Shown here: piece by piece, positions 3,108 to 24,000 of the stretch
Layout: the number at the start of each line of letters is the position of its first letter
Position numbering within the stretch: the stretch's first letter is position 1
Source of the DNA: an uncultured Acetobacteraceae bacterium
GTDB lineage: Bacteria > Pseudomonadota > Alphaproteobacteria > Acetobacterales > Acetobacteraceae
NCBI GenBank assembly: GCA_903918195.1
Contig: CAIXDS010000071.1
Span: 1 to 24,000 of the forward strand
Direction: 5' to 3'
DNA: 24,000 nt
Translations under genes and position numbers: made by a program
Notes under the pieces: generated by a model
Databases searched by the model: none
Seen by the model: the letters and a program-made list of their open reading frames with translations, nothing else
Told to the model about the DNA's origin: nothing

Positions 3108-3140
3108 GTGCAACTCCCCTGCCCGCGAATCTTGCGTCGG

Positions 3141-3178: not shown

Positions 3179-3268
3179 TCGGTCAGATGGGTGCATACTC
3201 CCCCGTGTCGCGAGTCGTGGTGCCCTTGGTGGGCTGCGGCGGTGCGGACATTGGAACGGAGAGCGCAG

Positions 3269-6434: not shown

Positions 6435-6489
6435 TCTGAATTCCAGTTGCGTGTCGCTTTACGCGCCTTAGGGTAGGAGAAAACCAAGG

Positions 6490-7026: not shown

Positions 7027-7363
7027 TCGGGGTAGCTTGAGCCCGGACGCCGTGCGCCAGATCCTGGGGTCACCACACGATTTTCTCAAAATCGCACGCT
7101 AAGCCGAAAGTCCTTTGGTTTTAGGGTATTGCGCAAACGATCGTGGCTCATACTGGATTCTAGGGTGGTGGAGATCCAAGTGTTTTCAGTGCGTTGTAGA
7201 CGCTTGCACCTGCCAGATGGTCACCTTGCGGCTACCCCGAGCGCCGTGGAGACGCAAACCAACCGGAAAACTGATGCTGCGTTGCCCGCAACCCTACGCT
7301 AACAAATTGATTTTACGGATATTACTACCGCCCCGAAACCCAGGATGAGCCACGCCTTCTGCA

Positions 7364-9008: not shown

Positions 9009-9440
9009 TCATTCCTCACCCGGCAACGGTACGTGCCGAACGCTCCGGTAATGGTCATCAGGCAGGATCGTTTCCCCGTGTGCCACGATGCCAAAGCAGT
9101 CTGTGATGAGGCGGACGAACCCCGGCTGGTGCAACTGCCTGTCGGCCCGGATGACGAAGCGCCGTGCCACGGAATCATAGAGAACACGGCCACGTGGCCA
9201 TTCCTCGTATTCGGACCAGACTGGAGCCGTTGGAATTCCATCTCCGCGGAGTGCACGCGCGCCACGGCGGGCCAGCCGCGACCAGTGCTCAAGATGGCCC
9301 GTGTCCACGGTCAGCATGTCGCCATAGGCCTCGGCCCGTTCCAGCGGGACGGCCAGTGCGATGACGGTCGATTTTCCGCCCTCCTCGACCACCCAGAACG
9401 GGCCGACCATCCCGCCTCCGTCTGGTTTCGCCCCGTTCAT
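9009..9440 (-). CDS. Hypothetical protein (143 aa) translationally coupled to the DUF2779 gene
   Basis: ORF 9009-9503 trimmed to ATG 9440, which overlaps the upstream stop (ATGA on the minus strand, 9440-9437). G/C-rich third positions. Conserved-looking segments are 'GPFWVVEE', 'SEYEEWPRGRVLYD' and 'RFVIRADRQL'. Family not recognised. Confidence 0.65.
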   Translation of the reverse strand: MNGAKPDGGGMVGPFWVVEEGGKSTVIALAVPLERAEAYGDMLTVDTGHLEHWSRLARRGARALRGDGIPTAPVWSEYEEWPRGRVLYDSVARRFVIRADRQLHQPGFVRLITDCFGIVAHGETILPDDHYRSVRHVPLPGEE

Positions 9441-10921
9441 TGCTGCGCCAGCTTTGCCAGAGCGCGGTGCACCTCGACCATGGCAAGCGTATCGCGCTGG
9501 CAATAGGCGCGCAGCGCGGCCTGCAACCGATCGGCTTCCTCGGGAACCGCGAGAACGCCGGAGGCTAACTGCAGGAACGCCGCCGCCGCCGCGAGTCCAT
9601 CGGCGATGCCGTCGAGATCGTCGTAACCAAAGCCGGGGCGGAGGGCGGGAGCAACGGATTTGATCGAGTTGCTGAAGCCGAACTCAGGAAGGTAGACGGT
9701 ACCGCGCACGATCGGCAGCAGGTCCAGCAGCCGGGCGATGATCGCGGCGATCCCCGAGCACAGATCGGAGAACCGCGCCGCCAGTTCCTTCAGCTGCGTC
9801 TGTTCATAGGCCGAATAGACGATGATCGGCCCATCGAAGGCCCCGAGTGCCTCGATCAGCGTTTCGGCGAATCGGCGCCGCGGATCTTCGCTGCCATCGG
9901 CGAGGAACTCCCGGTGATGCAGGGCACCGTCGTCGGCGATCGCGTGCAATGACCATTGAAAGGGAAGAGTCTGGTAGGGTCGCGTCCCTTCGTAGAGCGG
10001 GATGGGTGGCATCATCGCCTCGAAGTCCAGGTAGCAGGCGGGAGGGCCGTAGCCCGGCAGCAGGCGTGCCAGATCGGGAGCGATGTAGGGCCGCCCGCTT
10101 GCGGTCGCATCGCGGATGATGGCTTGCTTTCCCGTCAGCGGGAAATCCGCCGGGATTGCTGAAATGGCATCGATGCCGCGCGCCTGGAGCTCGCTCGCGC
10201 GGGCATGCGACAGACGGGGGAGATAGGCGATCCAGTCGGCCGGCTTGTGTGCCGTGCACCGGTCCCAGTACTCGCACTCATAGGGCGCGCGGCACTGGCT
10301 GCCCGGCTCGGCATCCGGAGGCTCGGCCATGCGCAGACATGCCCGCATGGCGGGCAGCGCCGCGGGCAGGTCGCCAAGCCTCTTCGCCACCTCGGCACCG
10401 ATGTCGCTTCGGGCGAAGAACTCCGGCCAACTGATGCCGCCGGCCCCGCGAACATAGGACGTGTTCACATGGAGATGCTCGACGGATGGGATGGGGATGC
10501 CAGCGCCCCTGAGAACGTGGAGCTGAAGAGCAATGTCGTCGACATGATGGTCCTTGACGCTGGCGCTGCTCTTCACTTCCCGTAGTCCCCAGGTCGCGTT
10601 GCCCCGCCGTTCAAGCACGTCCACCCGGATACGGATATCGTCGTGCTCGAACGCGGCCTCGAAGATCGCCGGCACGCCCGTATCGTCCATCAGCGCGGCC
10701 GTGCGGGCGCGGGCTTCGGCATGCTGCCACGGTTCCTGGTCGACGAGCACGCCACCAGGAAACAGCAGGTACGCCTTGCGGCCGATCTGCTGTCCGATGT
10801 CCAGCGGGGATCCCGGCAGTGGTTCCTCGTAATTCGGCGGCTCGTTGACCAGCAGCCAGAGCCGGCGCAGGCATTGCAGACCGGCGATGTAGCGCGACTT
10901 GGTGAGATGCTGACCGGGCAC
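9437..10921 (-). CDS. DUF2779-type protein: N-terminal Cas4/RecB-like PD-(D/E)xK nuclease with a Cys cluster plus a C-terminal RNase H-like exonuclease domain
   Basis: ORF 9437-11089. Family N-terminus 'LTKSRYIAGLQCLRRLW'. Nuclease motif 'IRIRVDVLERR...WGLREVKSS'. Cys cluster 'QC...CRAPYECEYWDRC'. C-terminal 'CYLDFEAMMPPIPLYEGTRPYQTLPFQWSLH'. Start moved to GTG 10921 because the 56 upstream codons have clearly lower GC3; ATG 11089 remains possible. Confidence 0.85.
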   Translation of the reverse strand: MPGQHLTKSRYIAGLQCLRRLWLLVNEPPNYEEPLPGSPLDIGQQIGRKAYLLFPGGVLVDQEPWQHAEARARTAALMDDTGVPAIFEAAFEHDDIRIRVDVLERRGNATWGLREVKSSASVKDHHVDDIALQLHVLRGAGIPIPSVEHLHVNTSYVRGAGGISWPEFFARSDIGAEVAKRLGDLPAALPAMRACLRMAEPPDAEPGSQCRAPYECEYWDRCTAHKPADWIAYLPRLSHARASELQARGIDAISAIPADFPLTGKQAIIRDATASGRPYIAPDLARLLPGYGPPACYLDFEAMMPPIPLYEGTRPYQTLPFQWSLHAIADDGALHHREFLADGSEDPRRRFAETLIEALGAFDGPIIVYSAYEQTQLKELAARFSDLCSGIAAIIARLLDLLPIVRGTVYLPEFGFSNSIKSVAPALRPGFGYDDLDGIADGLAAAAAFLQLASGVLAVPEEADRLQAALRAYCQRDTLAMVEVHRALAKLAQQ

Positions 10922-11193
10922 TGATTGCGTCCGAGGTGGATGCAGAATCCTCCACGCCCCGATTGTTGTCGGCAACCGGAAATCGTCGCGCCTGGATGTG
11001 ACCACGTCCGCTTCTGTCGTGGCGGTGGCGTATTCTTTCGGAACGCCGCAGTGACAGGAGGCCACCGAACCGGCTATGACACGCTCCATGCCATGAGCAC
11101 CTGACCCGAGACCTCTTTGACGCTCAGGAATCAGCCCGCACTCGGACTCTGTCCGGACGGTCTGGTCCGCGTGTGTTCATCGAGGAGGTCCCC

Positions 11194-11517
11194 GTGTTCC
11201 AGGTCCAGGTTCCCGTTGTCATCGTTCCGTCCACCGAGGCCCGCGCGGCGCTCGGCGTTCAGCTTCGCCCGGCCGGGCTGGCGGCCTGGTGTGAGCTGGC
11301 CCGCCGTGGCCGGGGCCTCGAGATGGCGCATTTCCAGATCGTCCATTCGGGTGTGACGCTGGCTGTCTGCTCACGCCTGCGCAGCAATGGGTTCATCGAA
11401 ATCGGCCTTGGTCTCGGCGACCCGAGGCAGGCGGCCCGCGTCATTCCCGAGGCGCAGCTTCGTCGGGCCGAGGCCCGCGTCAGGACCCGCGCCGGTCAGC
11501 CGCCGCACCGTCGGTGA
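11194..11517 (+). CDS. Hypothetical protein (107 aa)
   Basis: ORF 11173-11517; GTG 11194 has GAGGAGG 5 nt upstream. High GC3 throughout. Followed by a stem-loop terminator. No family recognised. Confidence 0.45.
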   Translation: MFQVQVPVVIVPSTEARAALGVQLRPAGLAAWCELARRGRGLEMAHFQIVHSGVTLAVCSRLRSNGFIEIGLGLGDPRQAARVIPEAQLRRAEARVRTRAGQPPHRR

Positions 11518-11525
11518 CCGATCCC

Positions 11526-11551
11526 GGGGGCGGCAACGTCCGCCCCCGTTT
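11526..11551 (+). terminator. Stem-loop, probable intrinsic terminator of the 107-aa gene
   Basis: GGGGGCGG (11526-11533), loop caacgt, CCGCCCCC (11540-11547), then 'gttt'. It starts 9 nt after the stop codon. The U-tract is short. Confidence 0.5.
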
Positions 11552-11815
11552 CCCGTCAGCACGCCATCCGAAAGCTGTGATCGATGTCGCAATTGACAGC
11601 CGCCGCCGGCGCGGCCTATCCGTCCGGTTCCGTAAGCACCTGTCTGCCCACCCGAGCCACCCTGTCCGCCATCCCGCCGGCCCTCGGTCGCGCGGGCATT
11701 TTGCGTTCAGCGATGACCAACGCAGCGGCGAAGGCCGACCTGCGCGTTCCTGCACGACTAGGTTTGACGCACGACAGGCGCATCTCTCCCACGCGTGCGG
11801 TCAGGAAAAACTGAC

Positions 11816-13939
11816 ATGACCATTTCCGAGTATATGGAAATCGAGCACGCCGCGCCGGCGCGGTCGGTCAACAGCGGGCGGTGCCTGGCGCTCCGCTGCG
11901 CCCGCAATGTCTGCGCCGCGGCCTCCCGCCGCTCTCCAGAGGCCCGGGCGGTTGCCGACTGGCTCGCCGAACATGCCGAGGCACTCGGCCTGCCCGATGC
12001 GGCGCCGCCGGAGGAGAGCATGCCCGTCGGCACGCAGCGCCGCCGCGGCGTCTCGGCCGAGGTCTGGGACTGGGTCGGGCAGACGCTGGAGGATGCCTGG
12101 AACAGTGAGGCCGCCGCGGCGAACACGGCGGCCGAACGCTGGGCCAACGCCATCGCCGCCAGGCTCGCGCTTGATCCGGCGGAAGCGTCGGTCTTCTCCC
12201 TGGCGCTGCATTACCGGCTGGACCAGCGGGTCGAAAACCTGTTCGACGCGGTCAGCCAGTCCCGCGGCGGCCGGTCACAGCTCCACCGCGATGTGGCGCT
12301 GATCGGGCTGCTGCTCGGGGAAGCCGAGGCCGGGATCGAGGCGCGCCTGATGCCTGAAGCTCCGCTGCTGGCCAGCGGCCTGCTGCATCTCGACCGGGAC
12401 GGCGACCTGATGGTCCTGCACCAACTCGTCTGCCTCATCCGGCGGAACACCCCCCCGGGCGCCGATCTGTACGACCACCTGCTCGGCAAGGCGGCGGGCG
12501 ATCCGCTGCCTTGGGAGGCGTTCGCACATCTCGGCCGCGAGGCGGAGGTCGCGGCCGAGGTGCTGCGGGCGACGCTTGCCGCGCGGGAGAGCGGCGTCAA
12601 CATCCTGCTTTACGGGCCGCCGGGCACCGGGAAGACCTCATTCGCCGCCACCCTGGCCGCCCATGTCGGCGCCCGGCTGCGGCCGGTGACGGAAGCCAGC
12701 GAAAGCGGTTGGGAACCCCGGCGGCACGAGCGCCTGGCCGGGCTGCTGTTGGCCCAGCGCCTGGCGGCACCGGGGGAGACGCTGCTGTTGTTCGACGAGG
12801 CCGAGGACCTCTTCGTCGCCCGCACCTATCGGGACGGCGACTTGGTGGCGAGTTCGCGCGTCTTCATGCATCGCCTTCTCGAACGCATGACATTGCCGGT
12901 GATCTGGACCGCGAACGACATCGGCGCGCTCGGCCCGGCGGTGCTGCGGCGGATGACGATGTGCCTGGAGCTGAAGGTGCCGAACGTGGTGACGCGGACC
13001 CGGCTCTGGCGCCAGATGGCGACGGCGGAAGGTGTCGCGTTGCCGGAGGCCGACGCCGCCCGCCTCGCCCGGCTGGTTCCGGCCGCCCCCGCCGTCGCTT
13101 CCGCCGCGCTGCGGGCGACGCGCCTCGCCGGCGGCGGGGCGGAGACGGCCAGGCTGATCATCGAGGGCGTGGCGCGCGCGGTGCAGGGCGGTGGCCTTCC
13201 GCTGCCGGAGCCGGAGCACGATGCCGATTACGACCCCGCGCTGGTGAACGCGGATTGCGACCTCGCGTCCCTGACCGCCGGTCTGGTGCGGCAACGTGCG
13301 CCGCGCGCGGTTTCGTTCCTGCTGGCGGGACCGCCGGGCACGGGCAAGAGCGTCTGGGTGCGGCACCTCGCGGCGCGGATGGGGATGCAGGTGCTCCAGA
13401 AGCGTGCCTCCGACCTGCTCAATTCGTTCCTCGGCGGCACCGAGCGGAACATCGCCGACGCCTTCGCCGAGGCGCGGGACACCGGCGCCTTCCTGGTGTT
13501 CGACGAGGCCGACAGCCTGCTGCTCGACCGCGCCGACGCGGTGCGCAGCTGGGAGATCAGCCAGGTCAACGAGATGCTCACCTGGATGGAGCAGCATCCG
13601 TTGCCGTTCGCCTGCACGACCAACCTCCCGGCCCGCCTCGACCGCGCCAGCCTGCGCCGCTTCCTGGTCAAGGTCAGCTTCGACTGGCTGACGCAGGCCC
13701 AGGCGCGGCTGGCCTTCCGGCGGTTCTTCGGCATGGCGCCGCCCGCGGGACTCGACGGCCTGCTGACACTGACGCCCGCGGATTTCGCGCTGGTCCGGCG
13801 GCGCGCCGCGGTGACCGGCGCCACGGCGAACCAGGCGGCGCTGCTGCGTCTGCTGGCCGCCGAGTGCGAGGGCCGGGTCGGCGGGCGGCTGCAGGTCGGG
13901 TTCGCGGCCAGGGCGGCGGGTGATTGCGATGCCGCATAG
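11816..13939 (+). CDS. Tandem classical AAA+ ATPase (two AAA modules, Cdc48/VAT-like arrangement) with an unassigned ~250-aa N-terminal region
   Basis: ORF 11795-13939; ATG 11816 (AGGA about 9 nt upstream). AAA1: Walker A 'GPPGTGKT' 12614-12637, Walker B 'LLLFDEAEDL', 'WTANDIGALGPAVLRRM'. AAA2: Walker A 'GPPGTGKS' 13328-13351, pore-loop-like 'NSFLGGTE' (FLG 13427-13435), Walker B 'FLVFDEADSL', second region of homology 'TTNLPARLDRASLRRF'. 707 aa. Confidence 0.85.
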   Translation: MTISEYMEIEHAAPARSVNSGRCLALRCARNVCAAASRRSPEARAVADWLAEHAEALGLPDAAPPEESMPVGTQRRRGVSAEVWDWVGQTLEDAWNSEAAAANTAAERWANAIAARLALDPAEASVFSLALHYRLDQRVENLFDAVSQSRGGRSQLHRDVALIGLLLGEAEAGIEARLMPEAPLLASGLLHLDRDGDLMVLHQLVCLIRRNTPPGADLYDHLLGKAAGDPLPWEAFAHLGREAEVAAEVLRATLAARESGVNILLYGPPGTGKTSFAATLAAHVGARLRPVTEASESGWEPRRHERLAGLLLAQRLAAPGETLLLFDEAEDLFVARTYRDGDLVASSRVFMHRLLERMTLPVIWTANDIGALGPAVLRRMTMCLELKVPNVVTRTRLWRQMATAEGVALPEADAARLARLVPAAPAVASAALRATRLAGGGAETARLIIEGVARAVQGGGLPLPEPEHDADYDPALVNADCDLASLTAGLVRQRAPRAVSFLLAGPPGTGKSVWVRHLAARMGMQVLQKRASDLLNSFLGGTERNIADAFAEARDTGAFLVFDEADSLLLDRADAVRSWEISQVNEMLTWMEQHPLPFACTTNLPARLDRASLRRFLVKVSFDWLTQAQARLAFRRFFGMAPPAGLDGLLTLTPADFALVRRRAAVTGATANQAALLRLLAAECEGRVGGRLQVGFAARAAGDCDAA

Positions 13940-13958
13940 AAGAAGGCAGCATGCCGCC

Positions 13959-15005
13959 ATGAGGTATGGACCAGCAGAACGTCTGCTGCGCCTCGCCCGC
14001 TCTCTGGCGGCGACCCGCACCGGGCTGACGCTCGACGAAATGGCCGCCGAGCTTGAAGTCACGCGGCGGACGGCCGAGCGGCTGCGCGATGCCCTGATGG
14101 CCATGTTCCCGGAAATGGACAGCCAGGATGGCGACGACCGCACACGGCGCTGGCGGCTGCCGGGCAGCACCCTGATCGGGGTGCTGGAACCCCGCGCCGA
14201 GACCGTGGCCGCGGTCGAAACCGCCGCGCGCGAGTGCGAGCAACGCGGCGAAGCCGACCGCGCGGCGCTGCTGCGCGATGCCGCGACCACGCTGCGGGCG
14301 GTGATGCGGCCGGATGCCCTGCGCCGCACCGAGACGGGCATCGCCGCGCTGATGGAGGCCGAGGGCATCGCGATGCGACCGGGACCGCGGCCGGTGCTGG
14401 CTGCCGGGGTCCTGCCGACGTTGCGCCGGGCGATTCTGGGCATGCAGCCCGTCGTGGTCCGCTACGCGGGGCGCGATGCGGAGGAACCGGCGACGCGCAT
14501 CTTGTGTCCGTACGGCATTCTCTACGGCGGGCGCGGCTGGCTGGTCGCGCATGTCGAGAACCTACCGGAGATGCGGCTGTGGCGGTTGGATCGGATCGTT
14601 TCGGCCGATCGGCTCGAACGTTGCTTTCTGCGACGGGAAGATTTTTCGCTAGCGGCCTATGCGGCGCGGTCCTTCGGGGTGTTTCAGGAGGAGCCGATCG
14701 ACGTGGTGCTGCGGTTTGAACCGGAGGCGGCGGAGGACGCGGCATCCTGGACGTTTCATCCGTCACAATTTATCGTGCGGGAAGCGGATGGTTCTCTGAC
14801 CGTGCGGTTCCGGGCGGGCGGGGTGCAGGAGATGTGCTGGCATCTGTTTGCGTGGGGGACGGCGGTGACGGTGGTGGGGCCAGAATCGCTACAGGATACG
14901 ATCGCAGTTCTTGCGCGGGCTCTCGCCCAACACCACGCGAGGATCAGGGCTTGCGTTGACATATCAAACAAATCTGATGGCGGAAGGCACGATCATGCCA
15001 GATGA
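13959..15005 (+). CDS. HTH-WYL-WCX transcriptional regulator (YafY/PafBC-like)
   Basis: ORF 13920-15005; ATG 13959 lies 19 nt after the AAA+ stop. HTH: 'RLLRLARSLAATRTGLTLDEMAAELEVTRRTAERLRDAL'. WYL: 'VVVRYAGRDAEEPATRILCPYGILYGGRGWLVAHVENLPEMRLWRLDRI'. WCX-like: 'SLTVRFRAGGVQEMCWHLFAWGTAVTVVGPESL'. 348 aa. Confidence 0.85.
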   Translation: MRYGPAERLLRLARSLAATRTGLTLDEMAAELEVTRRTAERLRDALMAMFPEMDSQDGDDRTRRWRLPGSTLIGVLEPRAETVAAVETAARECEQRGEADRAALLRDAATTLRAVMRPDALRRTETGIAALMEAEGIAMRPGPRPVLAAGVLPTLRRAILGMQPVVVRYAGRDAEEPATRILCPYGILYGGRGWLVAHVENLPEMRLWRLDRIVSADRLERCFLRREDFSLAAYAARSFGVFQEEPIDVVLRFEPEAAEDAASWTFHPSQFIVREADGSLTVRFRAGGVQEMCWHLFAWGTAVTVVGPESLQDTIAVLARALAQHHARIRACVDISNKSDGGRHDHAR

Positions 15006-16314
15006 GGCCCAGATACGAGACTTCTTTGCGAGGGTACGCGGCATTGCCGAGGCGACGCGACTGGCGGGATCAGCGATCGCCCGCGCAGTTGCTCCGCGTT
15101 TCTGCCCTGTTGCGCTGTTTTATCCGAACGAAACTGACCTGAGTCGCGTGCTCGCATTCCTGATTGATCCGACCGCCAATCACGGGCAGGGAACGATGTT
15201 TCTGCGTCTCTTTCTTGATGTCGTTGGGTTGCCTGAATGCGACGATCGGGAGGACGGGATTGACGTTTCGACAGAATATGTTTTGAGTCCCAGTTTGCGT
15301 CGCGCCGATATCGCTGTCAGTTATACCCGTCTGGATAGGCAACGAATTCATTTGCTGATCGAAAATAAGCCGTGGGCTGGCGATGGTGTAGATCAGCTTT
15401 CTGATTATTCGAAATACCTGAAAACTAAATATCAGTCTACGCCATGGGCAATTGTTTATATTCCATCGACGGAGCGCGACCCTGGCGCGCACTCCGTCGA
15501 TGAGAACTGCTTCCAAACCCTTATCGCGAATCGTAGTTTATTTATCTTACCGTATGTGTCGAAGCAAAGAGAGAGATCGATTCAGGAATGGCTCAAACGC
15601 TGTGAAGCAACCTGCGAGGCTGAGGAGCCTCGGCGTTTTATTGGTGCCTTCAGGCGCTATCTTGCAGAGAATGTTCCAGATACTGGAGTTGTTCAGATGA
15701 GCGATGCCGAACGGTCGGTTGCGCAGATTTTGCTGAAGTTCTTGCAGGAACGCGACGAAGATATAAATATCGCACTGGAGGTACCAAAGGCGCTCGCCAG
15801 CCTTCGGAATGATCTGGCCAAGAAGATTGGGGATCGGATCACGGAGGGGATAAGAAGCAGGTTGCAGGGTGGTGACTGGCAGATCGAATCGAACTTTACG
15901 ACCGAGCAGTGGGCCGGCTTGGGCATTTACCGTTCTCGTTGGCCAAAGGGAATGACAAAGAAAAATCAAGAAAGTCAGTGTTTCGTTGGTATCGAGTTTC
16001 ATGGCAGCTTTAAACAGGCCCACTACGGTGTGGCGGGGCACAGAGATATGCTTGGGGAGCTCAGGGGACCTATCAGGGAGGCTGCGAGCGAGTATTTGCG
16101 GCTCGCCGGGGACCGGGATTGGTGGCCAGCCATATTAAATTTCGAACAGCCATTGGCCGATTGGCTATCGGATGAGTTCCTGCACTTCGCCCGACGCGTA
16201 CTGCGCGACGAGGAAGAGTCGTCGGCTGTTGTCAACAATTTGGTTACATGTATTGTTGAGGTTGCCAAGAAAGTCGACGAAGTGGTCACCAGGATGCAGC
16301 CCGATAAGGCGTGA
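14995..16314 (+). CDS. PD-(D/E)xK nuclease superfamily protein (PDDEXK_4-like N-terminal domain, unassigned C-terminal half)
   Basis: ORF 14911-16314; ATG 14995 has GGAAGG 7 nt upstream and overlaps the WYL gene end by 11 nt. 'ETDLSRVLAFLIDPTANHGQGTMFLRLFL' is followed by the nuclease core 'RRADIAVSY...RIHLLIENKPWAGDGVDQLSDY' (Asp codon 15307-15309, E-N-K 15361-15369). Sampled blocks are about 47-52% GC. 439 aa. Confidence 0.75.
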   Translation: MPDEAQIRDFFARVRGIAEATRLAGSAIARAVAPRFCPVALFYPNETDLSRVLAFLIDPTANHGQGTMFLRLFLDVVGLPECDDREDGIDVSTEYVLSPSLRRADIAVSYTRLDRQRIHLLIENKPWAGDGVDQLSDYSKYLKTKYQSTPWAIVYIPSTERDPGAHSVDENCFQTLIANRSLFILPYVSKQRERSIQEWLKRCEATCEAEEPRRFIGAFRRYLAENVPDTGVVQMSDAERSVAQILLKFLQERDEDINIALEVPKALASLRNDLAKKIGDRITEGIRSRLQGGDWQIESNFTTEQWAGLGIYRSRWPKGMTKKNQESQCFVGIEFHGSFKQAHYGVAGHRDMLGELRGPIREAASEYLRLAGDRDWWPAILNFEQPLADWLSDEFLHFARRVLRDEEESSAVVNNLVTCIVEVAKKVDEVVTRMQPDKA

Positions 16315-16336: not shown

Positions 16337-19300
16337 CTATTCCGGATCAACCCGCACCATCCGCCCCGACGTCATGAACACCACCAGCCCCCTGGCGGCA
16401 CCAGTGGCGCGGAGATAGGTGCGAACCTGCGCGGCGTACCCGGCGATCGCCGCCGCGTCAGGCGCCACATCGCTCTTCCAGTCGATCACCATTTCCGGCG
16501 CACCGCCGGCCGACAAGGCCACGGCGTCGGCAATGCCGAGAACCACTTCCTCACCGGCGTCGCCGGCCGCAGCGGCGCAGACGTTGAATTCCGGCACCAG
16601 CGAGGCGCGAACGGCGTTGACATCCGGCAAGGCCAGGGTGCGGAGCACGGACGCTGCGAGTTCGGCCGGATCGGCGTCGTCCACCGGCTCGGGACAGGTG
16701 GCCGCGAGTTCGGCGGCACGCACGCGCAGTGCGGCCTCGGTGTCGCCGGTCTCGCCCGTCAGCACCTCCTCCATCAGCTTGTGCAGCACCAGGCCACGCC
16801 CACGCCCGCCCTGGGGCAACGGCGGCGGTTCCGGCTGGTCCGCGGCGTCCAGCACCACCGGCTCCGGGTCCGCCTCGCCGCTTTCCGCCCGGCTCGGCGT
16901 CACCCGCACCAGGCGGGTGGCGCGGGCGGTGATCAGCCCGGCCTCGGTCGTGAAGGTGGCCGCGTCCTGGCCGTTCGCCTCCTCCGTGTGCACCGGCAGA
17001 ACCGAGGGCGGCAGCCCCGCCTGGTCGAACGCCGGCAGCGTCCGGACCTCAAGCGGCACTGCGGCGCTCCAGGCGGAGTCCGAGAGCTTCGCTGCAAACC
17101 GCGGCAACAGCAGCAGGTCGCGCGCCCGCGTCGCCGCCACGTACCACAGGCGCTGGCGTTCCAGGCCCATCTGCGCGGTCTCGTCCGCCAGCGCCGCCGC
17201 GCAGCCGGGCGGGTCCACGCCCAGGATGCGGGCATGCAGCAGCCCGGTGGCGCGATCGAGCACCGGGGGGCGCGGACCGAACACGCCGCCTGATGTGTTC
17301 ACCGGGATCACCACCGCCCATTCCAGCCCTTTGGCTGCATGCATGGTGATCAGCGAGACCGCCTCCTGCTCGGCGTCCGGCCGCGCTTCCTGTGTTCGGG
17401 TCTCTTCCTGCCATTGCGTGCGTATCGCCCGTGCGAAGGCGCCGAGGCCGCGAGTCTCCCAGCCGCGGGCCATCTCCAGGAAGGCATCGACGTTTGCCAG
17501 CGCCCGTTCGGCACCGCGGCCGAAGCGCTGGCGCAGTACCGGGCGGACCCGCATTTCCTCGACCGCCTGCGCCAGCAGGACATAGGGCGTGGTGGCGCGC
17601 GCGCGGCGGGCCAGGCCCTGCAAAATCTCCAGTGTTTCCCTCAGCACCGGCTCGGCGACGTTGACGATGGGCAACCATAGGTTCAGCCGCGCCGGCCTTC
17701 CATCGGCGGCGGGCGGCACCGCTTCCAGCGCGTCGAGCAGCGCTTCCTCCGTCATGCCCACCAGCGGCCCTCGCAACAGCGCGCCGAGCGCCAGCGTGTC
17801 GCGCGCATCCGCGAGTGCCCCGGCCAGCGCGATCAGGTCCTGCACTTCCTGGCGGCGGAAGAACCCTTTTCCCGCCTGCGTCGCCACCGGCAGGAAGCGG
17901 TCCTCAAGAGCGCGCTCGTAGCGCCAGAGATCGGTACCGGTCGGGGCCAGCAGGGCGATGTCGCCGGCCCGGCAGGGGCGCGTCGTTCCGTCCGATCCGC
18001 GCACGGCGAAGGCGCCGATCAGGCGGCGGCAGGTTTCCGCCACTTGGTCCGCCTCGGCGTCGCGCAGCGAAGCGGCGTTTGTCTCGGCAGCTTCAATGTC
18101 CAACGCACAGACGCTGGCGCGCTCGTCGAGCGCCGCCGCGGTGCTGAACAGCGGCGCAAAGCCCGGCTGGCCCGGCGCGCCGAGGGGAGCGGCGAAGCGT
18201 TCGTTCACCCATTCCAGAATCGGCTCCACCGAGCGGAAGTTGCACCCGATCGCCAGCACATTGTCAGGCGCGCCGGCGCGCAGCGCGTCGCGCGCGCGAA
18301 CGTAGGTCGCGACATCGGCGCCACGGAAACGATAGATCGCCTGCTTGGGGTCGCCGACCAGGAACAGCGCCCCGTCGCGCAGCCGCCAGTCGGTCCAGGG
18401 CGCGTCCGTGTGACCGGCCGGCGCGTCGCCGCAGAGCCGCCACAGGATTTCGGCCTGCACCGGGTCGGTGTCCTGGAACTCGTCGACCAGCACGTGGCGG
18501 AACCGGCCGGCCAGCGCGGCGCGCACGGCAGGGTTTCCGGCCAGCAGGTCGCGGGCGCCGTGCAGCAGATCGTCGAAATCGAGCAGCCCGGCGGCGCGCT
18601 TGGTTTCTTGGAAGCGGTCAACGATTGCTTGCAGGTCCGGCGCGAGCCGGGCCAGCAGCGTGCCTGCCGCGGCAGCCCGCAACTCGGCGTGGCCGGTTTT
18701 GCAGGCGGCGTAGAGAGCTGTGGCCTCGTCGTTCAGACGATCGGCCTCAGCCTTGCTGCCTCGGCCGCCCAGCGTCGTCTGCCAGGCGCCTTTCTTGCGA
18801 TAGGCTGCGAACGCACCCGCTGCCGTGCTGCAGGCCTGAGGGACCGGCAGGTACAGCAGCGCGAGAAGCCGCGCGATGTCGCCGGCAGCACCGTCCGGCA
18901 GCCCGGTCAGCAAATCCTCGAGCCCCTCGGCAACTTCCTTGATGAGAGGCTCGCAGATCGGCACGCCATCAACGAAGACCTGCAACGCTGCCACCGCTTG
19001 CCGCAGCGCCGCACAGGCCCCCTCCAGGTCCGGCGCAGGCGGCAGAGTCGCGCCCCGATGCTGGCGCAGCATCTGCGCGAAGCCGGCGATCAGCTCCTCG
19101 GGTTTTCCTTCGTCGAGCAGGAACAACGCCGCCAGCGCATCGTCGCCGGCGGTATCGCTTGCCAGCCGTTCGCGCAGCACCTCCTGCACGGTCTCGTCGA
19201 ACAGCAACGCCGCCTCGCCGGCATCGGCCACGGTGGCACCGGGGTCGGTCCGCGCCTCCACCGGCCAGGGAGTCAGCAACATGCGGCAGAAGCCGTGGAT

Positions 19301-19663
19301 GGTTGTGCAGGCGAGCGCATCGATCCGCGACGCGGCCTGCATCAGCGCCGCGTGTTGCGCCGCGGTCAGCCCCTTTGGCAGCGCCGCTGCCAGATCACGC
19401 GGCACCTCGTTGCGGCAGAGCGCCATCACGAAGCGCTCCACTCGCTCACGCAACTCGCTCGCCGAGGCTTCGGTGAAGCTGATCGCGGCGATGCTCTCGG
19501 GCGCTCGCCCGGCCGCGAGCAGCAAGGCGATGCGCCCGGCCAGCACCGAGGTCTTTCCCGATCCGGCTCCGGCCTCGACAAGCAGCGTGGCATCAAGATC
19601 GGTGAGCGCCCGCAGCCGGCTGGCGGCGTCCGATCGTGCGAGAGTGGCAACGCTTGACATCAC
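16337..19663 (-). CDS. AddA-like UvrD/Rep-family helicase with a C-terminal RecB-type nuclease
   Basis: 1108-aa ORF. Walker A 'EAGAGSGKTSVL', motif II 'VLVDEFQDTDPVQ', motif III 'LFLVGDPKQAIYRFRGA', 'CNFRS', 'ITMHAAKGLEW' and 'LWYVAATRARDLLLL'. C-terminal nuclease 'GIADAVAL...EMVIDWKSD...YAAQVRTYL'. Start is GTG 19663 or ATG 19660, both overlapping the upstream stop (19660-19662). Confidence 0.9.
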   Translation of the reverse strand: MMSSVATLARSDAASRLRALTDLDATLLVEAGAGSGKTSVLAGRIALLLAAGRAPESIAAISFTEASASELRERVERFVMALCRNEVPRDLAAALPKGLTAAQHAALMQAASRIDALACTTIHGFCRMLLTPWPVEARTDPGATVADAGEAALLFDETVQEVLRERLASDTAGDDALAALFLLDEGKPEELIAGFAQMLRQHRGATLPPAPDLEGACAALRQAVAALQVFVDGVPICEPLIKEVAEGLEDLLTGLPDGAAGDIARLLALLYLPVPQACSTAAGAFAAYRKKGAWQTTLGGRGSKAEADRLNDEATALYAACKTGHAELRAAAAGTLLARLAPDLQAIVDRFQETKRAAGLLDFDDLLHGARDLLAGNPAVRAALAGRFRHVLVDEFQDTDPVQAEILWRLCGDAPAGHTDAPWTDWRLRDGALFLVGDPKQAIYRFRGADVATYVRARDALRAGAPDNVLAIGCNFRSVEPILEWVNERFAAPLGAPGQPGFAPLFSTAAALDERASVCALDIEAAETNAASLRDAEADQVAETCRRLIGAFAVRGSDGTTRPCRAGDIALLAPTGTDLWRYERALEDRFLPVATQAGKGFFRRQEVQDLIALAGALADARDTLALGALLRGPLVGMTEEALLDALEAVPPAADGRPARLNLWLPIVNVAEPVLRETLEILQGLARRARATTPYVLLAQAVEEMRVRPVLRQRFGRGAERALANVDAFLEMARGWETRGLGAFARAIRTQWQEETRTQEARPDAEQEAVSLITMHAAKGLEWAVVIPVNTSGGVFGPRPPVLDRATGLLHARILGVDPPGCAAALADETAQMGLERQRLWYVAATRARDLLLLPRFAAKLSDSAWSAAVPLEVRTLPAFDQAGLPPSVLPVHTEEANGQDAATFTTEAGLITARATRLVRVTPSRAESGEADPEPVVLDAADQPEPPPLPQGGRGRGLVLHKLMEEVLTGETGDTEAALRVRAAELAATCPEPVDDADPAELAASVLRTLALPDVNAVRASLVPEFNVCAAAAGDAGEEVVLGIADAVALSAGGAPEMVIDWKSDVAPDAAAIAGYAAQVRTYLRATGAARGLVVFMTSGRMVRVDPE

Positions 19664-22305
19664 GCGGCCTCCCAGATCTCGGCCGCCGGACCGAGCAGGA
19701 CGGCGGCAGCTTCGCGCTTGCGCTCGAAAACACTGCCTTGTTGGGACGGCAAAGCGAAGGCCAAGTCGTCGTAATCGCCTCCGGTGTCAGGCCCGGGCAC
19801 AGCCAGCCCGGCCTGCAGGGCCGCCAGGCTGTGGTTTAGCGCGCTCACCAGCGTGGCGAGCGCTCCGTCGGGATCGGGGAGGGGATAGTACGGTGTCTCA
19901 GATCGCGGATACAGAAGCGCGGCCTCGACCTCCGTTTCCGTCCCAAGCAGCGCGCGCACCGCGGCAATATACAGGCATCGCTGCAGCTCCCCGCCGCCGG
20001 CCAGCACGCGGCCGGCGATGTCGCGCGGCGGGTTGCCGGTCTTGAAATCCACCACCCGCGCTTTGCTGCGGTTGCCGGCGAGATCGAGCCGATCGATCTG
20101 TCCCGTGAGGGCAAGCGACGTCCCGGGGATTTGCACCGGCTGCGCCGCATCCCAGGGCATCGCGCCCTCCGGCGGCTCATCGACGTTGAACGGCACTTCG
20201 GGCCAGGTGGTCTGGCCGTCCAGGGCGCGAAGCGGATGAGAGAGCGCATCGGTTGCGAGCGCGGCGGCCTGGTCGAGTGTCCGCCGCCAAAGCAACGGTG
20301 GCGGCAGAGGCATGCTCGCCTGCCAGCGCAGGCCGATCCGGCCGGCTTCGCCGGCGACCGCAGCGGCGATCTGCTTCGGCTCGTCGCCGGCCGCGTCTTC
20401 CGCTGTCGCCAGCACGCGGAGAGAAGCGGCGATGATCTCATGCGTGAGCGTGCCGAAGGTGAGGGGATCGAGGCGGAACGGCTCGGCCTCTTCGTCGGGC
20501 GCCCGCAGGCCGAGCGCATACTGCCAGACGAAGCCGAGCGGATTGCGCAACAGCTTCTTCAGCGAGGTCGCGGAGTGGTGCCGCGCCAGCACGCGTTGCA
20601 CGGCCGGGTGCCCTGCACGGACCAGACCGTCATGCGGCGTGATGCCTGGGGAGAGCCAGTCGCGCCATACAGCGTCGGCTGCCTGCGCCCGCGGCTTCCT
20701 GGCGAACTCGGCCGGGCGCGCCATCAGCCGGTCAGCCTCGCTCATGGCATGCGAAGGCACGGCGGCGCGGCGCAGGAAACGCGCGCCGGCATCGGGCAGT
20801 AGCGGCGAGCGGCCGAGCAGGCGGCCGGTGGCATCACGGCGGCTGCACGACAGCACCAGTTCGCGCGCCGTTCCGCCGCAGATGCTGGCGAAGTCGCGCC
20901 GGTCGGCCTCGGCGACCGGCAGCACGTCGAGCACGGCGGCGGGGACCAGGCTGGTAGGCAGCAGCGGGTCCTCCCGGCTCTGCCGCGGCCAGGACTGTGC
21001 GTTCAGGCCCAGCAAGCGCACAAACGGACGCGGTGCGGCGGCCAGTTCGGCGGCCGGCCCCCAGATGATGCTGCAGGCCGGATCGGCGGGATCGGTCACA
21101 CGCAGGGAAGAAAGCGACCGTTCGATCGCCGCGGCACTTTCGCGGTCGAGGGCGCGGCGCCACAGCGTGCGGGCGAGGCCGCACAGGATTGTTTCGCCGG
21201 CTTCGGCAGCCGCCTCCGGCCTACGATGCAGCAGCTCGACAACCGGCATCAGCACGGCGGCCACCGCCGCGCCATCCTCGCCGGCGTCGTCGCAGACAAT
21301 CTGCCAGCGGGCCGGGGTTCCGAGCGGCGCACCCTCTGGGAGCACGCGCCGCCAGGTTTCCGGCAGGGCGTGCAGCGCTCCGCCGGCCGGCGCGGCCAGC
21401 GCGACAAGGCGGCGCAGTCGTGCCTGCGACAGGCCCCGCAGCAGGATGTCGGCCAGCGCGGCGGCGGTCTGGCCCTCGCGCGTGAACAAGGCCGGCCGGC
21501 CATGGGCGAAATGCAGCTGCAGGTTGGCGTCGGCCACCGCCGCCTCGACGATGTCGTCGAAGGCGGCCGGCGAGGCGGCAACGATGGCTATCTCCTCGGC
21601 GCGCGCCGCACCGCTGGCAAGCAGGGCGCGTGCCCAGCGCAGGGCCTCGATCACCTCGTGCCGCGCGGTCGCGCAGCTCACAACTGTTGGCGTTGCTGCG
21701 GTGCTGGTGGTCCGGCGGATGGCGACTTCCGTTCCGTCCAGCCAGGCCGGCACCTCGCGCGCCCCGGCGTGCCACGAGACTGGCACATGCGATCCGAGCT
21801 CCAGCAGAAGACCCTGCCAGACCGGCTCCAGCGCCGTCATGCCGTGCACCTCAACCGGGCCGGTGACAACAGGCGCATGGGCGAGCCGCCCCCGTGCCGC
21901 CGCCGCGAGTTCGGCCGGGCGCAGCATGCCGGGCGGGAGGCGCTTCAGCACGTCGGCCTCAAGCGTCGCCAGCGTGGCGAAGCGCGGATGCTCCGCCGCG
22001 CGCGCCTGGAGGTCGATGCAGGCGCGCCAGGCCTTGCCGAGGGTGGACGCGAGCGCGAGTTGCAGACCCGGCAGGTCGCCGATTGGCGCAAGATCCCCAA
22101 GCGGTGCCGCGGCGGGATCCTGCAGCACCTCGCCGAGCGCCGCGGCGAGCGCCTCCGCATCGATCGCGCGCAGAAAGCCGCCAGCCAGCCGAGCCGCCAG
22201 CCCTGGCATGCTCATCACCTGCACGCCATGCTGGCCAGCGCGGGCGGCCTGGAGCCGCGCCTGATCGGCGGCGAGGCGGCCATAGGTTACGATGGTACAG
22301 CGCAT
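19660..22305 (-). CDS. AddB-like PD-(D/E)xK nuclease subunit (no P-loop, no Fe-S cysteine cluster)
   Basis: ORF 19660-22344; start placed at ATG 22305 (GGAGA about 9 nt upstream), alternatives 22338/22344. C-terminal RecB nuclease motif 'GQIDRLDLAGNRSKARVVDFKTG...ELQRCLYIAAV'. Long helicase-like but Walker-less N-terminal body. Immediately upstream of, and overlapping, the AddA-like gene. Confidence 0.8.
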   Translation of the reverse strand: MRCTIVTYGRLAADQARLQAARAGQHGVQVMSMPGLAARLAGGFLRAIDAEALAAALGEVLQDPAAAPLGDLAPIGDLPGLQLALASTLGKAWRACIDLQARAAEHPRFATLATLEADVLKRLPPGMLRPAELAAAARGRLAHAPVVTGPVEVHGMTALEPVWQGLLLELGSHVPVSWHAGAREVPAWLDGTEVAIRRTTSTAATPTVVSCATARHEVIEALRWARALLASGAARAEEIAIVAASPAAFDDIVEAAVADANLQLHFAHGRPALFTREGQTAAALADILLRGLSQARLRRLVALAAPAGGALHALPETWRRVLPEGAPLGTPARWQIVCDDAGEDGAAVAAVLMPVVELLHRRPEAAAEAGETILCGLARTLWRRALDRESAAAIERSLSSLRVTDPADPACSIIWGPAAELAAAPRPFVRLLGLNAQSWPRQSREDPLLPTSLVPAAVLDVLPVAEADRRDFASICGGTARELVLSCSRRDATGRLLGRSPLLPDAGARFLRRAAVPSHAMSEADRLMARPAEFARKPRAQAADAVWRDWLSPGITPHDGLVRAGHPAVQRVLARHHSATSLKKLLRNPLGFVWQYALGLRAPDEEAEPFRLDPLTFGTLTHEIIAASLRVLATAEDAAGDEPKQIAAAVAGEAGRIGLRWQASMPLPPPLLWRRTLDQAAALATDALSHPLRALDGQTTWPEVPFNVDEPPEGAMPWDAAQPVQIPGTSLALTGQIDRLDLAGNRSKARVVDFKTGNPPRDIAGRVLAGGGELQRCLYIAAVRALLGTETEVEAALLYPRSETPYYPLPDPDGALATLVSALNHSLAALQAGLAVPGPDTGGDYDDLAFALPSQQGSVFERKREAAAVLLGPAAEIWEAA

Positions 22306-22396
22306 TATTTCGGGTCTCCGAGGTGCGACGGCGCTCATTCCCACGATTTCTTAGCATGATCCGGCATCCGAACCGCTGCAGCCGGCATCGATATTC

Positions 22397-23584
22397 TCAC
22401 GCCGCGCTGAAGCGCTTTCGCTTAACCCAGACGAAGCCGTCACCCTTTGACAGGATGGCAACATCGATCGGTCCTCCCACGGTTTCTTTCTCACCGGCGC
22501 ACGCGTGCGCCCGGAAGGCGGTCAGGCTGACGAGAGCTTCCGCCATCTCGGCCAGGTCATGCCGCGGCAGCGCCGCAACGGCTTGCATGAAGGGGCCGGA
22601 GTGTTGCTTCGAAATTTCCTCCTGCAGGCTCGTCTCGAACCTTTCGACAGCGTCCGGGGCGTCGCCGCCAGTTGCCTTCTTATGCGGCTTGGATACCTTG
22701 AGGCTGTCCGCCATGAGCGCCGGCAGACTGTCGGCCAGGTCGGGGTGGATTCCCCGGATGATCATGTCGATCGTCTCGCGCTGCGCGAAAGGAATGATCA
22801 TCGCCGTGTCGTCATGCGTGATCCGGGCATGGTCAACCAGGTGCAGCTTGAGGCGACCCTTCACGACCGGGCCGACGCGGCAGAAGAGCAGGCCAGGAAA
22901 AGGCTCCGCCTCGCCCATGCCGGCGATGACCAGCCCAGAGAACGGACCGGGAAAGTTGGCGCGCGAGAGACACAGCCGAAGCGTCGTGCGCAGGCCGTCA
23001 CTGATGTCCCCCGGCATTACGTCCGGGCCGAAGACGGCGTGTTCCGCCTCGTCCAGAGCGGCGCCGTAATCGGCGATCACCGCGTCCGGGAAGCCGCTGT
23101 CGACGCGTTCCAGCAGCGGATATTTTTCCCAGATCGCATGATCCTCGGCGATAAGACGCCGCAGAACGTCGTGCGGGTCGCCGTTGTTGCGGCCGCGATG
23201 CTCGCCCAGCTTTTCCTTCCAGGGCTGGGCGTAGAGCCCATCCCACAGATCGCGTGCGAGGCTGGCGAAGCGTGCTAGTTGCAGCGCCTCCGGGAACATC
23301 GCCGTCGATCTTTCGATGATGGCTGCGAAATCCGCGAGGTATTCCGGCAGCGTGTCGTAGTGCCGGGCGCCGAGGTGCCGGTGGTAGCCGGCGACAATCG
23401 TTTCCCACGGCACGTCCATCAGATCGGCCGAGCCGAACGTCATGATGCCGACGGGCGCTGAGGGCGCCAGTTGCAGAAGCTTTTCGGCGTTGTGGTATAT
23501 TTTCTCACCCTCGCCGAGGGTGACCGCGCTATCCGCCGCCAGGGCGATCCCGCGCGTGTTCATCACTGCAACCTCACAGGTCAT
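22397..23584 (-). CDS. Proteasome-beta/HslV-like Ntn (T1 family) threonine peptidase homologue with a large internal insertion
   Basis: ORF 22397-23599; second ATG 23584 has AAGGA 6 nt upstream and gives N-terminus Met-Thr. 'MTCEVAVMNTRGIALAADSAVTLGEGEKIYHNAEKLLQL' parallels E. coli HslV '[38 protein letters not shown]' (from memory). This places Thr1, Asp17 and Lys34 (expected 33). Later beta-fold segments are 'SGLVIAGMGEAEPFPGLLF' and 'ETVGGPIDVAILSKGDGFVWV'. 395 aa, against about 180-240 aa for HslV/20S beta. Confidence 0.7.
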   Translation of the reverse strand: MTCEVAVMNTRGIALAADSAVTLGEGEKIYHNAEKLLQLAPSAPVGIMTFGSADLMDVPWETIVAGYHRHLGARHYDTLPEYLADFAAIIERSTAMFPEALQLARFASLARDLWDGLYAQPWKEKLGEHRGRNNGDPHDVLRRLIAEDHAIWEKYPLLERVDSGFPDAVIADYGAALDEAEHAVFGPDVMPGDISDGLRTTLRLCLSRANFPGPFSGLVIAGMGEAEPFPGLLFCRVGPVVKGRLKLHLVDHARITHDDTAMIIPFAQRETIDMIIRGIHPDLADSLPALMADSLKVSKPHKKATGGDAPDAVERFETSLQEEISKQHSGPFMQAVAALPRHDLAEMAEALVSLTAFRAHACAGEKETVGGPIDVAILSKGDGFVWVKRKRFSAA

Positions 23585-24000
23585 CGCAGGTCCTTTCATG
23601 GCGGCCGCGCGGACACGGGATCAGGAAGAATGATCACGAAAAAGAACATATTACCCCGACACGTCAAATCCGGACGCGCTAAAAGAAGACGTTCTTAATA
23701 CGCGACCACCAGTTAGAGGAGGCGGATATCGTCGTGATCTGCGCGAACTCATCAAGGGCAGTCTCATTTCGGGTACGCTTGAACGGTCACAAAGCTCGGT
23801 CGTGCATGGAGCGAAAGAGGGGAGCTTCGCAGCGTTATGGGCTGGCGGGCATCAATCTCTCGCCCTCCAGCCTCCATGAAGAAAAATCTCTATACTTGCT
23901 AAACCAAAGACGAATTGTCCAAAAGATTGATAACACAGCAATGCTAGATTATTTTGTTTGAGGTGGCAGGATAGGTATGCTTGGCACCCGCCTCGTACAG

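Follow-up and report, generated by a model that had tools for sequence, protein, structure and literature searches.

A predicted PMI-type proteasome homologue with two helical insertions, encoded beside AddB/AddA-like genes on a mobile/defence island of an uncultured Acetobacteraceae bacterium

Besides HslV, Anbu, BPH, and connectase, further proteasome homologues have been catalogued, but none of these has been characterised. The computational catalogue of Fuchs, Alva & Lupas (Bioinformatics 2021; PMC8665760) added 22 new groups, among them the PMI type, for "Proteasome homolog with Multiple Insertions". Of these additions PMI-4 is by far the largest, with 501 sequences at nr90 and members in every major bacterial phylum as well as in euryarchaeota and phages. 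The same study reported that, among the homologues, only beta subunits and HslV carry a propeptide, that insertions at the pore-loop and H3/H4 sites may hinder the assembly of rings and double rings, and that no genomic context hinted at a function of the new groups. Connectase, which has helical insertions, demonstrates that a proteasome homologue of this build can act as a specific ligase (PMC7980362, PMC8665760). Our literature search found no paper that characterises any PMI protein or links proteasome-like proteins to phage defence. Here, we analyse a gene that most likely belongs to the PMI type, located at 22397..23584 on the minus strand of a stretch of 24,000 nucleotides (the window; positions 1 to 24,000 of contig CAIXDS010000071.1, assembly GCA_903918195.1) from an uncultured Acetobacteraceae bacterium.

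The product of this gene, hereafter the peptidase, is predicted with high confidence to be an N-terminal nucleophile (Ntn) threonine hydrolase of the proteasome-beta/HslV (T1) superfamily. A preliminary description of this DNA had read it as a proteasome-beta/HslV-like threonine peptidase, and fold search, residue conservation, and profile-profile alignment now concur in that reading. Like the PMI-4 and PMI-3 proteins, it combines a proteasome-beta core carrying Thr1/Asp17/Lys33 and no propeptide with a long insertion after helices H1/H2 and a second one between H3 and H4, both sites being filled in the window protein. It further resembles PMI-4, the largest new family, which has no known function and spans proteobacteria, firmicutes, actinobacteria, bacteroidetes, the Planctomycetes-Verrucomicrobia-Chlamydiae group, cyanobacteria, euryarchaeota, and phages. 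Because this architecture, the very wide distribution, and the lack of a propeptide all fit, the window protein is most likely of the PMI type, and there of PMI-4 rather than PMI-3 or an unlisted group, the comparison being one of described features only. The PHI group was rejected, since PHI clusters tightly with proteasome subunits at BLAST level. The novelty that the preliminary description had implied for the protein does not hold, as its architecture matches the PMI homologues of PMC8665760; the kind is already known, computationally only, and its class is no surprise to specialists. What differs from that catalogue, which had no informative context to report, is the gene neighbourhood: in the window's clade (at least ~45% identity, MTCE N-terminus) the peptidase recurrently lies beside an AddB/AddA-like pair and a WYL/WCX regulator, which is new, and in the main clade it is accompanied by a small downstream gene.

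With the 20S beta subunits (PF00227, MEROPS T1) the peptidase shares the fold, the N-terminal Thr nucleophile, Asp17, and Lys33, together with recognisably similar terminal strands of the type GG-x-ID-VA..K-DG. Beta subunits, however, measure ~190-235 amino acids against 395 here and are made with a propeptide and assembled with alpha rings, whereas the two insertions of the window protein lie on the assembly and pore surfaces. HslV (ClpQ) is a bacterial homologue that gains its free Thr1 by no more than the loss of the initiator Met, and its N-terminal 40 residues are similar; yet HslV has only ~175 amino acids, a very short pore loop, and a double-hexameric assembly, and the pore-loop site is occupied here by a 117-residue insertion. 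To our knowledge, HslV is always encoded with HslU, and HslU is absent from the window open reading frames (ORFs) that we scanned. That no HslU-like partner adjoins the gene, as the preliminary description had it, is literally true, yet a double-ring classical-clade AAA+ gene lies 8.5 kb away. Anbu, a bacterial proteasome homologue without a known AAA+ partner, is among the best structural matches and gives the highest sequence identity in the Foldseek search described below (11-14%), but it has ~235-250 amino acids and a C-terminal coiled-coil helix H5, whereas the window chain ends 7 residues after S11. The Anbu operon contains ATP-grasp, alpha-E, and transglutaminase genes, and none of these domains was found in the window ORFs scanned.

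The gene, its catalytic codons, and its structural parts are the following.

22397..23584, minus strand: coding sequence of the predicted PMI-type proteasome-like threonine peptidase homologue, 395 amino acids plus stop (ORF search, start from homologue alignment)
23591..23595, minus strand: Shine-Dalgarno-like AAGGA, 7-11 nt upstream of ATG 23584 (6-nt spacing), read from the sequence
23579..23581, minus strand: Thr2 codon, predicted catalytic Thr1 after Met removal; invariant, aligned by hhalign with archaeal beta Thr1, with M1 on Gly-1
23531..23533, minus strand: Asp18 codon (mature Asp17); invariant, aligned with beta residue 17, which is Glu17 in Thermoplasma
23480..23482, minus strand: Lys35 codon (Lys33 equivalent); invariant, aligned by hhalign with Lys33 in 'GKKLFQI', in the same register against yeast alpha3
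23300..23584, minus strand: N-terminal core, residues 1-95, strands S1-S5 and helices H1-H2 (AlphaFold2 model, hhalign)
22949..23299, minus strand: insertion 1, ~residues 96-212 (~117 residues), five helices after H2 at the 'pore-loop' site (AlphaFold2 model)
22691..22948, minus strand: second beta-sheet S6-S9 and helix H3, residues 213-298, with invariant G222 and G224 (AlphaFold2 model, alignment, hhalign)
22565..22690, minus strand: insertion 2, ~residues 299-340 (~42 residues), loop and long helix between H3 and H4 (AlphaFold2 model)
22400..22564, minus strand: helix H4 and strands S10-S11, residues 341-395, including ETVGGPIDVA..SKGDGFVW, aligned with beta SGGMIDVAVITKKDGY (hhalign)

A longer ORF (22397..23599, minus strand) opens at a first ATG at 23599, five codons upstream of ATG 23584, and would give 400 amino acids. 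In the alignment, every close homologue begins with MTCEVAV, matching ATG 23584, and judged from sequence, ATG 23584 is the true start and the ORF is real. The start proposed earlier, with its ribosome-binding site, Met-Thr N-terminus, and 395 residues, thus agrees with both the homologue starts and the AAGGA spacing.

An AlphaFold2 model built from a 73-sequence alignment (mean predicted local distance difference test score [pLDDT] 87, predicted template modelling score 0.83) was compared with the PDB by Foldseek. Every one of the top 50 matches is to a 20S beta subunit or to Anbu (probability 1.0; E-values from 8e-5 to 1.4e-3; template modelling [TM] scores 0.34-0.52, normalised by the ~200-residue targets). 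Among the viral models of BFVD, a phage 'proteasome beta' protein scores best (TM 0.64, likewise normalised by target length). The alpha-beta-beta-alpha sandwich of proteasome subunits, on which the earlier reading depended, is thus present in the model. Profile-profile alignment points in the same direction. With the insertions excised, guided by the AlphaFold2 model and without imposing a register on the catalytic residues, hhalign places the whole core collinear and in register with archaeal PsmB (local probability P 68%, E 4.8e-5; global P 88.8%, E 2.8e-7). M1/T2 fall on the G-1/T1 processing site, D18 on residue 17, and K35 on Lys33; among the strands, VIAGMGE..PFPGLLF pairs with LLVGGID..PHVFSI, GGPIDVAILSKGDGF with GGMIDVAVITKKDGY, and GGPIDVA with the GGMIDVA of PsmB. 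The two later motifs that the preliminary description had singled out, SGLVIAGMGEAEPFPGLLF and ETVGGPIDVAILSKGDGFVWV, are each aligned to the corresponding archaeal beta strand. One reversed and eight block-shuffled controls gave a global P of at most 1.5% and an E-value of at least 0.014; the block of residues 341-395 alone reaches P ~68% in the shuffle controls.

Conservation was assessed in an alignment of 130 representatives, whose identity with the window protein lies at 29-61%. T2, A16, D18, K28, K35, G222, G224, G383, and W386 are invariant in this set; E4, N9, S19, E367, T368, D374, and S379 are conserved in at least 90%, as are G46 and G51 near the Gly47 oxyanion-hole position, and the N-terminus reads (M/V/L)-T in 128 of the 130. 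In mature numbering, T2 is Thr1, D18 is Asp17, and K35 is Lys34, the equivalent of Lys33. A Thr1/Asp17/Lys34 triad had been placed on precisely these residues from the window sequence, and the alignment of homologues finds all three conserved, in register by hhalign. Thr is a permissive second residue for methionine aminopeptidase, which would remove the initiator Met and expose Thr1; by analogy with HslV, the exposed Thr1 would then act as the nucleophile. Since methionine aminopeptidase would suffice to expose Thr1, the enzyme would be made active, and its control would lie in access rather than in autoprocessing.

Such control may be provided by the two insertions. Insertion 1 is modelled as five helices (residues 99-128, 137-152, 165-172, 174-185, and 192-207), mostly at pLDDT >90, and has no counterpart in beta subunits in the hhalign alignment. 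Insertion 2 comprises a loop at low pLDDT (299-307) and a helix (308-338); it is the family's most variable segment and shows no consensus in the homologue alignments. The remaining modelled elements are S1 (4-9), S2 (12-18), S4 (36-40), S5 (45-52), H1 (60-71), and H2 (79-92) on the N-terminal side, and S6-S9 (216-265), H3 (269-298), H4 (341-361), S10 (373-379), and S11 (383-388) on the C-terminal side, with the chain ending 7 residues past S11. The preliminary description had proposed a single helical insertion at residues 60-230. A large insertion does exist there, but its limits were drawn too wide, at 60-230 instead of ~96-212, because the canonical H1/H2 (within residues 60-95) had been included, and the second insertion, at ~299-340 between H3 and H4, had been overlooked (AlphaFold2 model and hhalign). 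The position after H2, taken by insertion 1, looks onto the pore in 20S and HslV particles, and the H3/H4 position, taken by insertion 2, onto the ring-ring interface. The insertions would be expected to cap or narrow the active site and would probably block a classical stacked-ring barrel. The enzyme would then be a substrate-restricted peptidase or transpeptidase and not a chamber for bulk degradation.

The family to which the peptidase belongs is large. More than 1,927 of the 8,000 candidates scored in a 90%-clustered collection are significant matches, all unnamed or 'hypothetical' and without Pfam domains; clustering at 50% identity leaves 5,890 representatives at E<=1e-3, 3,067 of these at E<=1e-30. 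Homologues occur in at least 378 species genomes (Proteobacteria, Bacillota, Bacteroidota, Planctomycetota, Chloroflexota, the candidate phyla radiation, anaerobic methanotrophic archaea, Methanosarcinales, and Methanosaeta), as well as in 13 phage or satellite records and 10 plasmids. The sole match in PHROGs is phrog_5990, of 'unknown function'; no standard annotation library recognises the family, which is why its members are labelled 'hypothetical protein' everywhere.

Throughout much of this family the peptidase gene has a conserved companion. A hidden Markov model (HMM) built from 46 short ORFs at the peptidase stop codon, whose starts lie between 37 nt before and 16 nt after that stop, detects a gene of 52-80 codons (median 63) in 48 of 67 distant loci (L015-L081), in bacteria and archaea alike; 48 of 49 matches are immediately downstream of the peptidase on the same strand (for example, L027:3454-3645, L053:7062-7253, and L041:10566-10748). 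Its product is basic and carries the motif [FY]xSxxE[FIV]E+x[FY][FYL]P+ ... G..LA.ESL.KI+..L. The gene had been missed in neighbour clustering because of a 90-amino-acid cut-off and came to light in a dedicated search. The HMM has no match in the window or its clade, and phage and plasmid copies of the peptidase are followed by ORFs of similar size (55-58 amino acids) that also lack an HMM match. Most of the family thus forms a two-gene unit, of which the window's clade has lost or replaced the small partner. This conserved gene appears to be a new finding, not previously reported, and its ~63-residue product is the best candidate for a substrate, inhibitor, or adaptor of the peptidase.

In the window, the peptidase stands in a different setting, a mosaic mobile/defence island whose guanine-plus-cytosine content (GC) ranges from 0.52 to 0.74 and whose other features are listed here.

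959-2050: tyrosine integrase
2160-3179, minus strand: WYL gene, divergent from the ubiquitin-like (Ubl) module
3191-4357, plus strand: Multi_ubiq, DUF2604 (Ubl), and Metal_CEHH
4231-4908, plus strand: Prok-JAB, a weak match (E 2e-4)
4809-6434, plus strand: Prok-E2_C and ThiF/E1 fusion
9437-11089: DUF2779 (Cas4-like PD-(D/E)XK) nuclease
11795-13939, plus strand: double-AAA+ ATPase (Pfam AAA x2)
13920-15005, plus strand: WYL/WCX regulator (Pfam WYL and WCX), whose orthologues directly adjoin the peptidase gene in other loci
14911-16314: PDDEXK_4 nuclease, matching the PADLOC candidate PDC-S26
16337-19663, minus strand: AddA/UvrD-like helicase, 1108 amino acids (Pfam UvrD-helicase, UvrD_C), overlapping the AddB-like gene by 4 nt
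19660-22344, minus strand: AddB-like PD-(D/E)XK nuclease, 894 amino acids (Pfam PDDEXK_1, E 1e-20), 52 nt downstream of the peptidase

The peptidase, AddB-like, and AddA-like genes run convergently to the AAA+/WYL/PDDEXK_4 cassette. No promoter-like or terminator-like site lies in the 52-nt gap between peptidase and AddB, and the GC at third codon positions (GC3) is 0.79 for the peptidase and 0.82-0.84 for the AddB/AddA-like pair; the simplest reading is that the three genes probably form an operon. A comparable co-directional string of peptidase, WYL, AddB, and AddA occurs in L083 and L090/91, and in L001, L082 (degraded by insertion sequences [IS]), and L084/85 the peptidase, WYL, AddB, and AddA genes lie together with the AAA+ gene within 10 kb in other orders; in L003 and L006, a WYL gene stands beside the peptidase. 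By tblastn, relatives of the WYL/WCX regulator (38-77% identity) are present in L001, L003, L006, L082, L083, L084, and L090. The AddB-like proteins of L084 and L090 are only 23-27% identical to that of the window, against 63% and 49% for the peptidase, so that the type of neighbour seems to have been kept despite a change of lineage. A WYL/WCX factor beside a proteasome-family gene, tied to genes for DNA damage or end processing, forms an arrangement that we take to resemble the PafBC/proteasome locus and BrxR/CapW. The PafBC locus belongs to other organisms, however, namely Actinobacteria; here there is no Pup, Dop, or Mpa, the proteasome relative is a PMI-type homologue rather than a 20S particle, and the regulatory link is drawn solely from gene proximity.

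Further clues come from the mobile elements that carry homologues. Streptococcus satellite phage Javan103 (L086, 9274-10479) and 6 satellites like it carry the homologue as their last gene but one, preceded by a small transcription regulator. The copy of a Providencia lambdoid phage (L102, 5001-6296) lies between the Q antiterminator/Dam methylase and the holin/lysis genes, a classical moron site. In Stenotrophomonas phages the homologue adjoins the lysis cassette in opposite orientation; in L003 it neighbours a relaxase, a serine recombinase, and an integrase, marking an integrative element. The satellite and Providencia positions are typical of accessory cargo. Within the window itself, the conflict context comprises an integrase, the Ubl/JAB/E2-E1 module, the PDC-S26-like nuclease, and two WYL genes. 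Given these mobile-element positions and a patchy distribution that crosses phyla, accessory or conflict cargo fits better than housekeeping proteostasis. A separate case is Porphyromonas phage phage022a_WW2931 (L087), where the homologue (6001-7245) sits in the head-morphogenesis block, between portal/'adaptor'/methyltransferase and neck, and where no capsid protein or prohead protease is annotated; this copy is probably a moron, and may alternatively serve in virion maturation.

Taken together, the predicted peptidase is probably active and substrate-restricted, and would be a mobile-element cargo gene acting in a conflict or DNA-stress module. In the window, on a defence island that also carries an integrase, it would head a probable operon that continues with the AddB/AddA-like helicase-nuclease, and a WYL/WCX factor of the PafBC/BrxR type would probably govern the module, to judge from gene proximity; in most other lineages the enzyme would instead be paired with the conserved basic ~63-residue protein. 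We regard the combination of a PMI-type Ntn threonine hydrolase with this role as likely, the weight lying on the identity of the enzyme; the biological role in a conflict or DNA-stress module is by itself a tentative proposal, for which the case is slightly short of balanced. It is tempting to speculate, although we consider it rather unlikely, that PMI homologues are the proteolytic switch of mobile-element conflict modules, with the peptidase processing or being restrained by its ~63-residue partner, and that the window's clade swapped this partner for a WYL/WCX sensor and an AddAB-type helicase-nuclease. If true, the PafBC-proteasome DNA-damage axis of Actinobacteria would have a bacterial counterpart here, with a proteasome relative wired directly to detecting or processing broken or foreign DNA. 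The AddB/AddA-WYL operon context and the small partner gene provide concrete, testable handles on the enzyme's function, and both bear on whether proteasome-type chemistry has been recruited into prokaryotic conflict and DNA-stress systems.

Several observations weigh against this interpretation. On the side of identity, Pfam, NCBIfam, and PADLOC give no match to the peptidase even at E<=10, PF00227, the Pfam proteasome model, included; many remote proteasome homologues are likewise missed by the curated family model (PMC8665760). In the PDB, phmmer and full-length profile searches return noise and nothing significant, and a profile of the first 95 residues does no better than a sub-threshold E of 1.8, nearly all to one yeast subunit, alpha3. 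That match is in register (AADSAVT on AAERKVT, NKLF on EKLY) and is suggestive, but by itself no evidence. The uncut family aligned by hhalign with archaeal PsmB reached 67% in the wrong register (S6 on S5), a result rejected as a local artefact; since the insertions threw the uncut alignment off register, it was rerun with the insertions excised and with shuffle controls, as described above. Ser129, Asp166, and Ser169 of 20S beta have no obvious one-to-one equivalents in the hhalign alignment, where Ser169 is aligned with Val369, beside the conserved Glu367 and Thr368. Membership in PMI-4 is one that we infer from described features and not from the reference sequence HDY66466.1, and our literature search found no experimental proteolysis or defence phenotype on record for any family member. 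On the side of the role, all-against-all clustering of neighbours of at least 90 amino acids in 80 genome loci yields none that is conserved, in agreement with Fuchs et al. (PMC8665760), the recurrent clusters being generic ATP-binding cassette, short-chain dehydrogenase/reductase, and methylase genes at varying distances. Many clade members, L088/89, L092, L004, and L009 among them, have neither WYL nor AddBA nearby. An obligatory link to AddBA was rejected, as all nine metagenome AddB/AddA-like loci (42-47% identity) lack peptidase, WYL, and AAA genes; the context link between the peptidase and AddBA is facultative.

The failure of Pfam, NCBIfam, and PDB sequence searches and the off-register uncut alignment would suit a protein unrelated to proteasome subunits whose motifs are coincidental. 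This chance resemblance is effectively refuted, and hardly credible, given exclusively proteasome-family Foldseek matches, a collinear alignment whose global E-value lies far below that of any shuffled control, and catalytic residues in register. It would be easier, though still very improbable, to envisage a dead scaffold of the proteasome-alpha kind, with the fold kept for a purely structural or regulatory role. The sole sub-threshold HMMER sequence matches being to an alpha subunit, and the unclear equivalents of Ser129/Asp166/Ser169, would agree with this. However, bacterial, archaeal, and phage members at ~30% overall identity all keep Thr2, encoded right behind the initiator codon, along with Asp18 and Lys35, and alpha subunits lack Thr1 and have an N-terminal extension, which is absent from the window protein.

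Among readings that accept an active enzyme, the protein could be a monomeric sequence-specific transpeptidase/ligase or narrow amidase whose insertions form a substrate-recognition lid. The Methanosarcina connectase sets a precedent for insertion-bearing specific ligases (PMC7980362, PMC8665760), its helical insertions restricting substrate access in a fold able to do specific chemistry; the window protein likewise has no propeptide and has large, confidently modelled insertions, and the conserved small protein beside most family members could be a specific substrate. We nevertheless hold this to be unlikely: the connectase insertion lies between S3 and S4, connectase lacks H1/H2, which the window protein keeps, and is confined to methanogens; connectase is not among the top Foldseek matches, and the small partner is absent from the window's clade. 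An HslVU-like machine, in which peptidase rings dock on the island's double-ring Cdc48-like AAA+ protein (11795-13939) that unfolds and feeds substrates, appears to us quite unlikely. The AAA+ protein does have two Walker A/B modules, its D2, a classical-clade unfoldase module, has the pore loop 'SFLGG', and the protein's best PDB relatives are the unfoldases Afg2, NVL, Cdc48, and VAT; AAA+ genes of the same family lie within 10 kb of the peptidase in the window, L001, L082, and L084, and a degraded copy lies directly upstream of it in L083/L005. Yet all four close AAA+ homologues (67-73% identity) stand in a cassette of their own and have no peptidase gene in the 10 kb around them, close members are far more numerous for the AAA+ family than for the peptidase clade, L090/91 carries the PMI-WYL-AddBA string without this AAA+ gene, and none of the 67 distant loci has it. 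Moreover, the AAA+ protein lacks an HbYX-type C-terminus, and the formation of rings and double rings should be impeded by insertions placed at the pore loop and between H3 and H4 (PMC8665760). A dedicated AAA+ partner, considered from five co-occurrences, was accordingly downgraded on account of the peptidase-free cassettes of all four homologues and the missing HbYX tail; because of these cassettes and the greater number of close members, the AAA+ gene is better seen as part of a neighbouring system that shares a WYL-type regulator.

The cassette with the AAA+ gene recurs as a small ORF (~100-112 amino acids), the double-AAA+ gene, WYL/WCX, and PDDEXK_4, at 11173-16314 in the window, at L105:9500-14171, and at L108:9561-14427; in L106/L107 the WYL and nuclease genes are replaced by one for an unknown protein of 200-268 residues. 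The cassette is not tied to the peptidase, IetA models match the D2 domain of its AAA+ protein, and the whole looks like a distinct candidate defence system. PADLOC v2 has no match for the AddB-like protein, and for the neighbours it returns generic or candidate models only (GajB-like UvrD, IetA-like AAA, WYL, and PDC-S26). The PDDEXK_4 gene of the window stands out by its composition (GC 0.53 and GC3 0.57, against GC 0.68-0.73 in its neighbours), and its annotated ORF overlaps WYL by 95 nt; the low GC and the overlap suggest that the gene was recently inserted or replaced and that its true start is a later one. Three loci have a DUF2779 gene in the vicinity of the peptidase and the AAA cassette (window 9437-11089, L006:102-920, and L082:13485-14672).

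Also present in the same 24-kb island as the AAA+ unfoldase and the proteasome homologue is a complete bacterial ubiquitin-like conjugation module. A link between it and the peptidase was considered and rejected: Ubl, E1, E2, and JAB genes are absent from the other peptidase loci examined, and the module is therefore probably an island coincidence. Upstream of the peptidase, window positions 23585-24000 have a GC of ~0.59 and are AT-rich just before the ribosome-binding site; no sigma-70-like site was called on the minus strand of this segment, which may hold the promoter/operator and the island edge.

Several loci of the close clade (L082, L083/L005, L001, and L092) are decayed or IS-ridden. 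In L082 the peptidase is split into 293 and 105 amino acids, in L083/L005 a fragment with a frameshift, immediately upstream of the peptidase and behind an rve-type IS, is what remains of the AAA+ gene, in L001 the AAA+ gene is split, and in L092 the peptidase is truncated beside IS21; a 572-residue 'protein' (P0006) is an artefact in which an AAA remnant is fused with the peptidase. Upstream of the PMI-WYL-AddB-AddA string in L090 (1-8831) are genes for a 1,728-residue DEAD/Helicase_C/MZB protein and for a 1,520-residue protein with weak NOV_C and Sacsin matches only, a setting that resembles a defence island.

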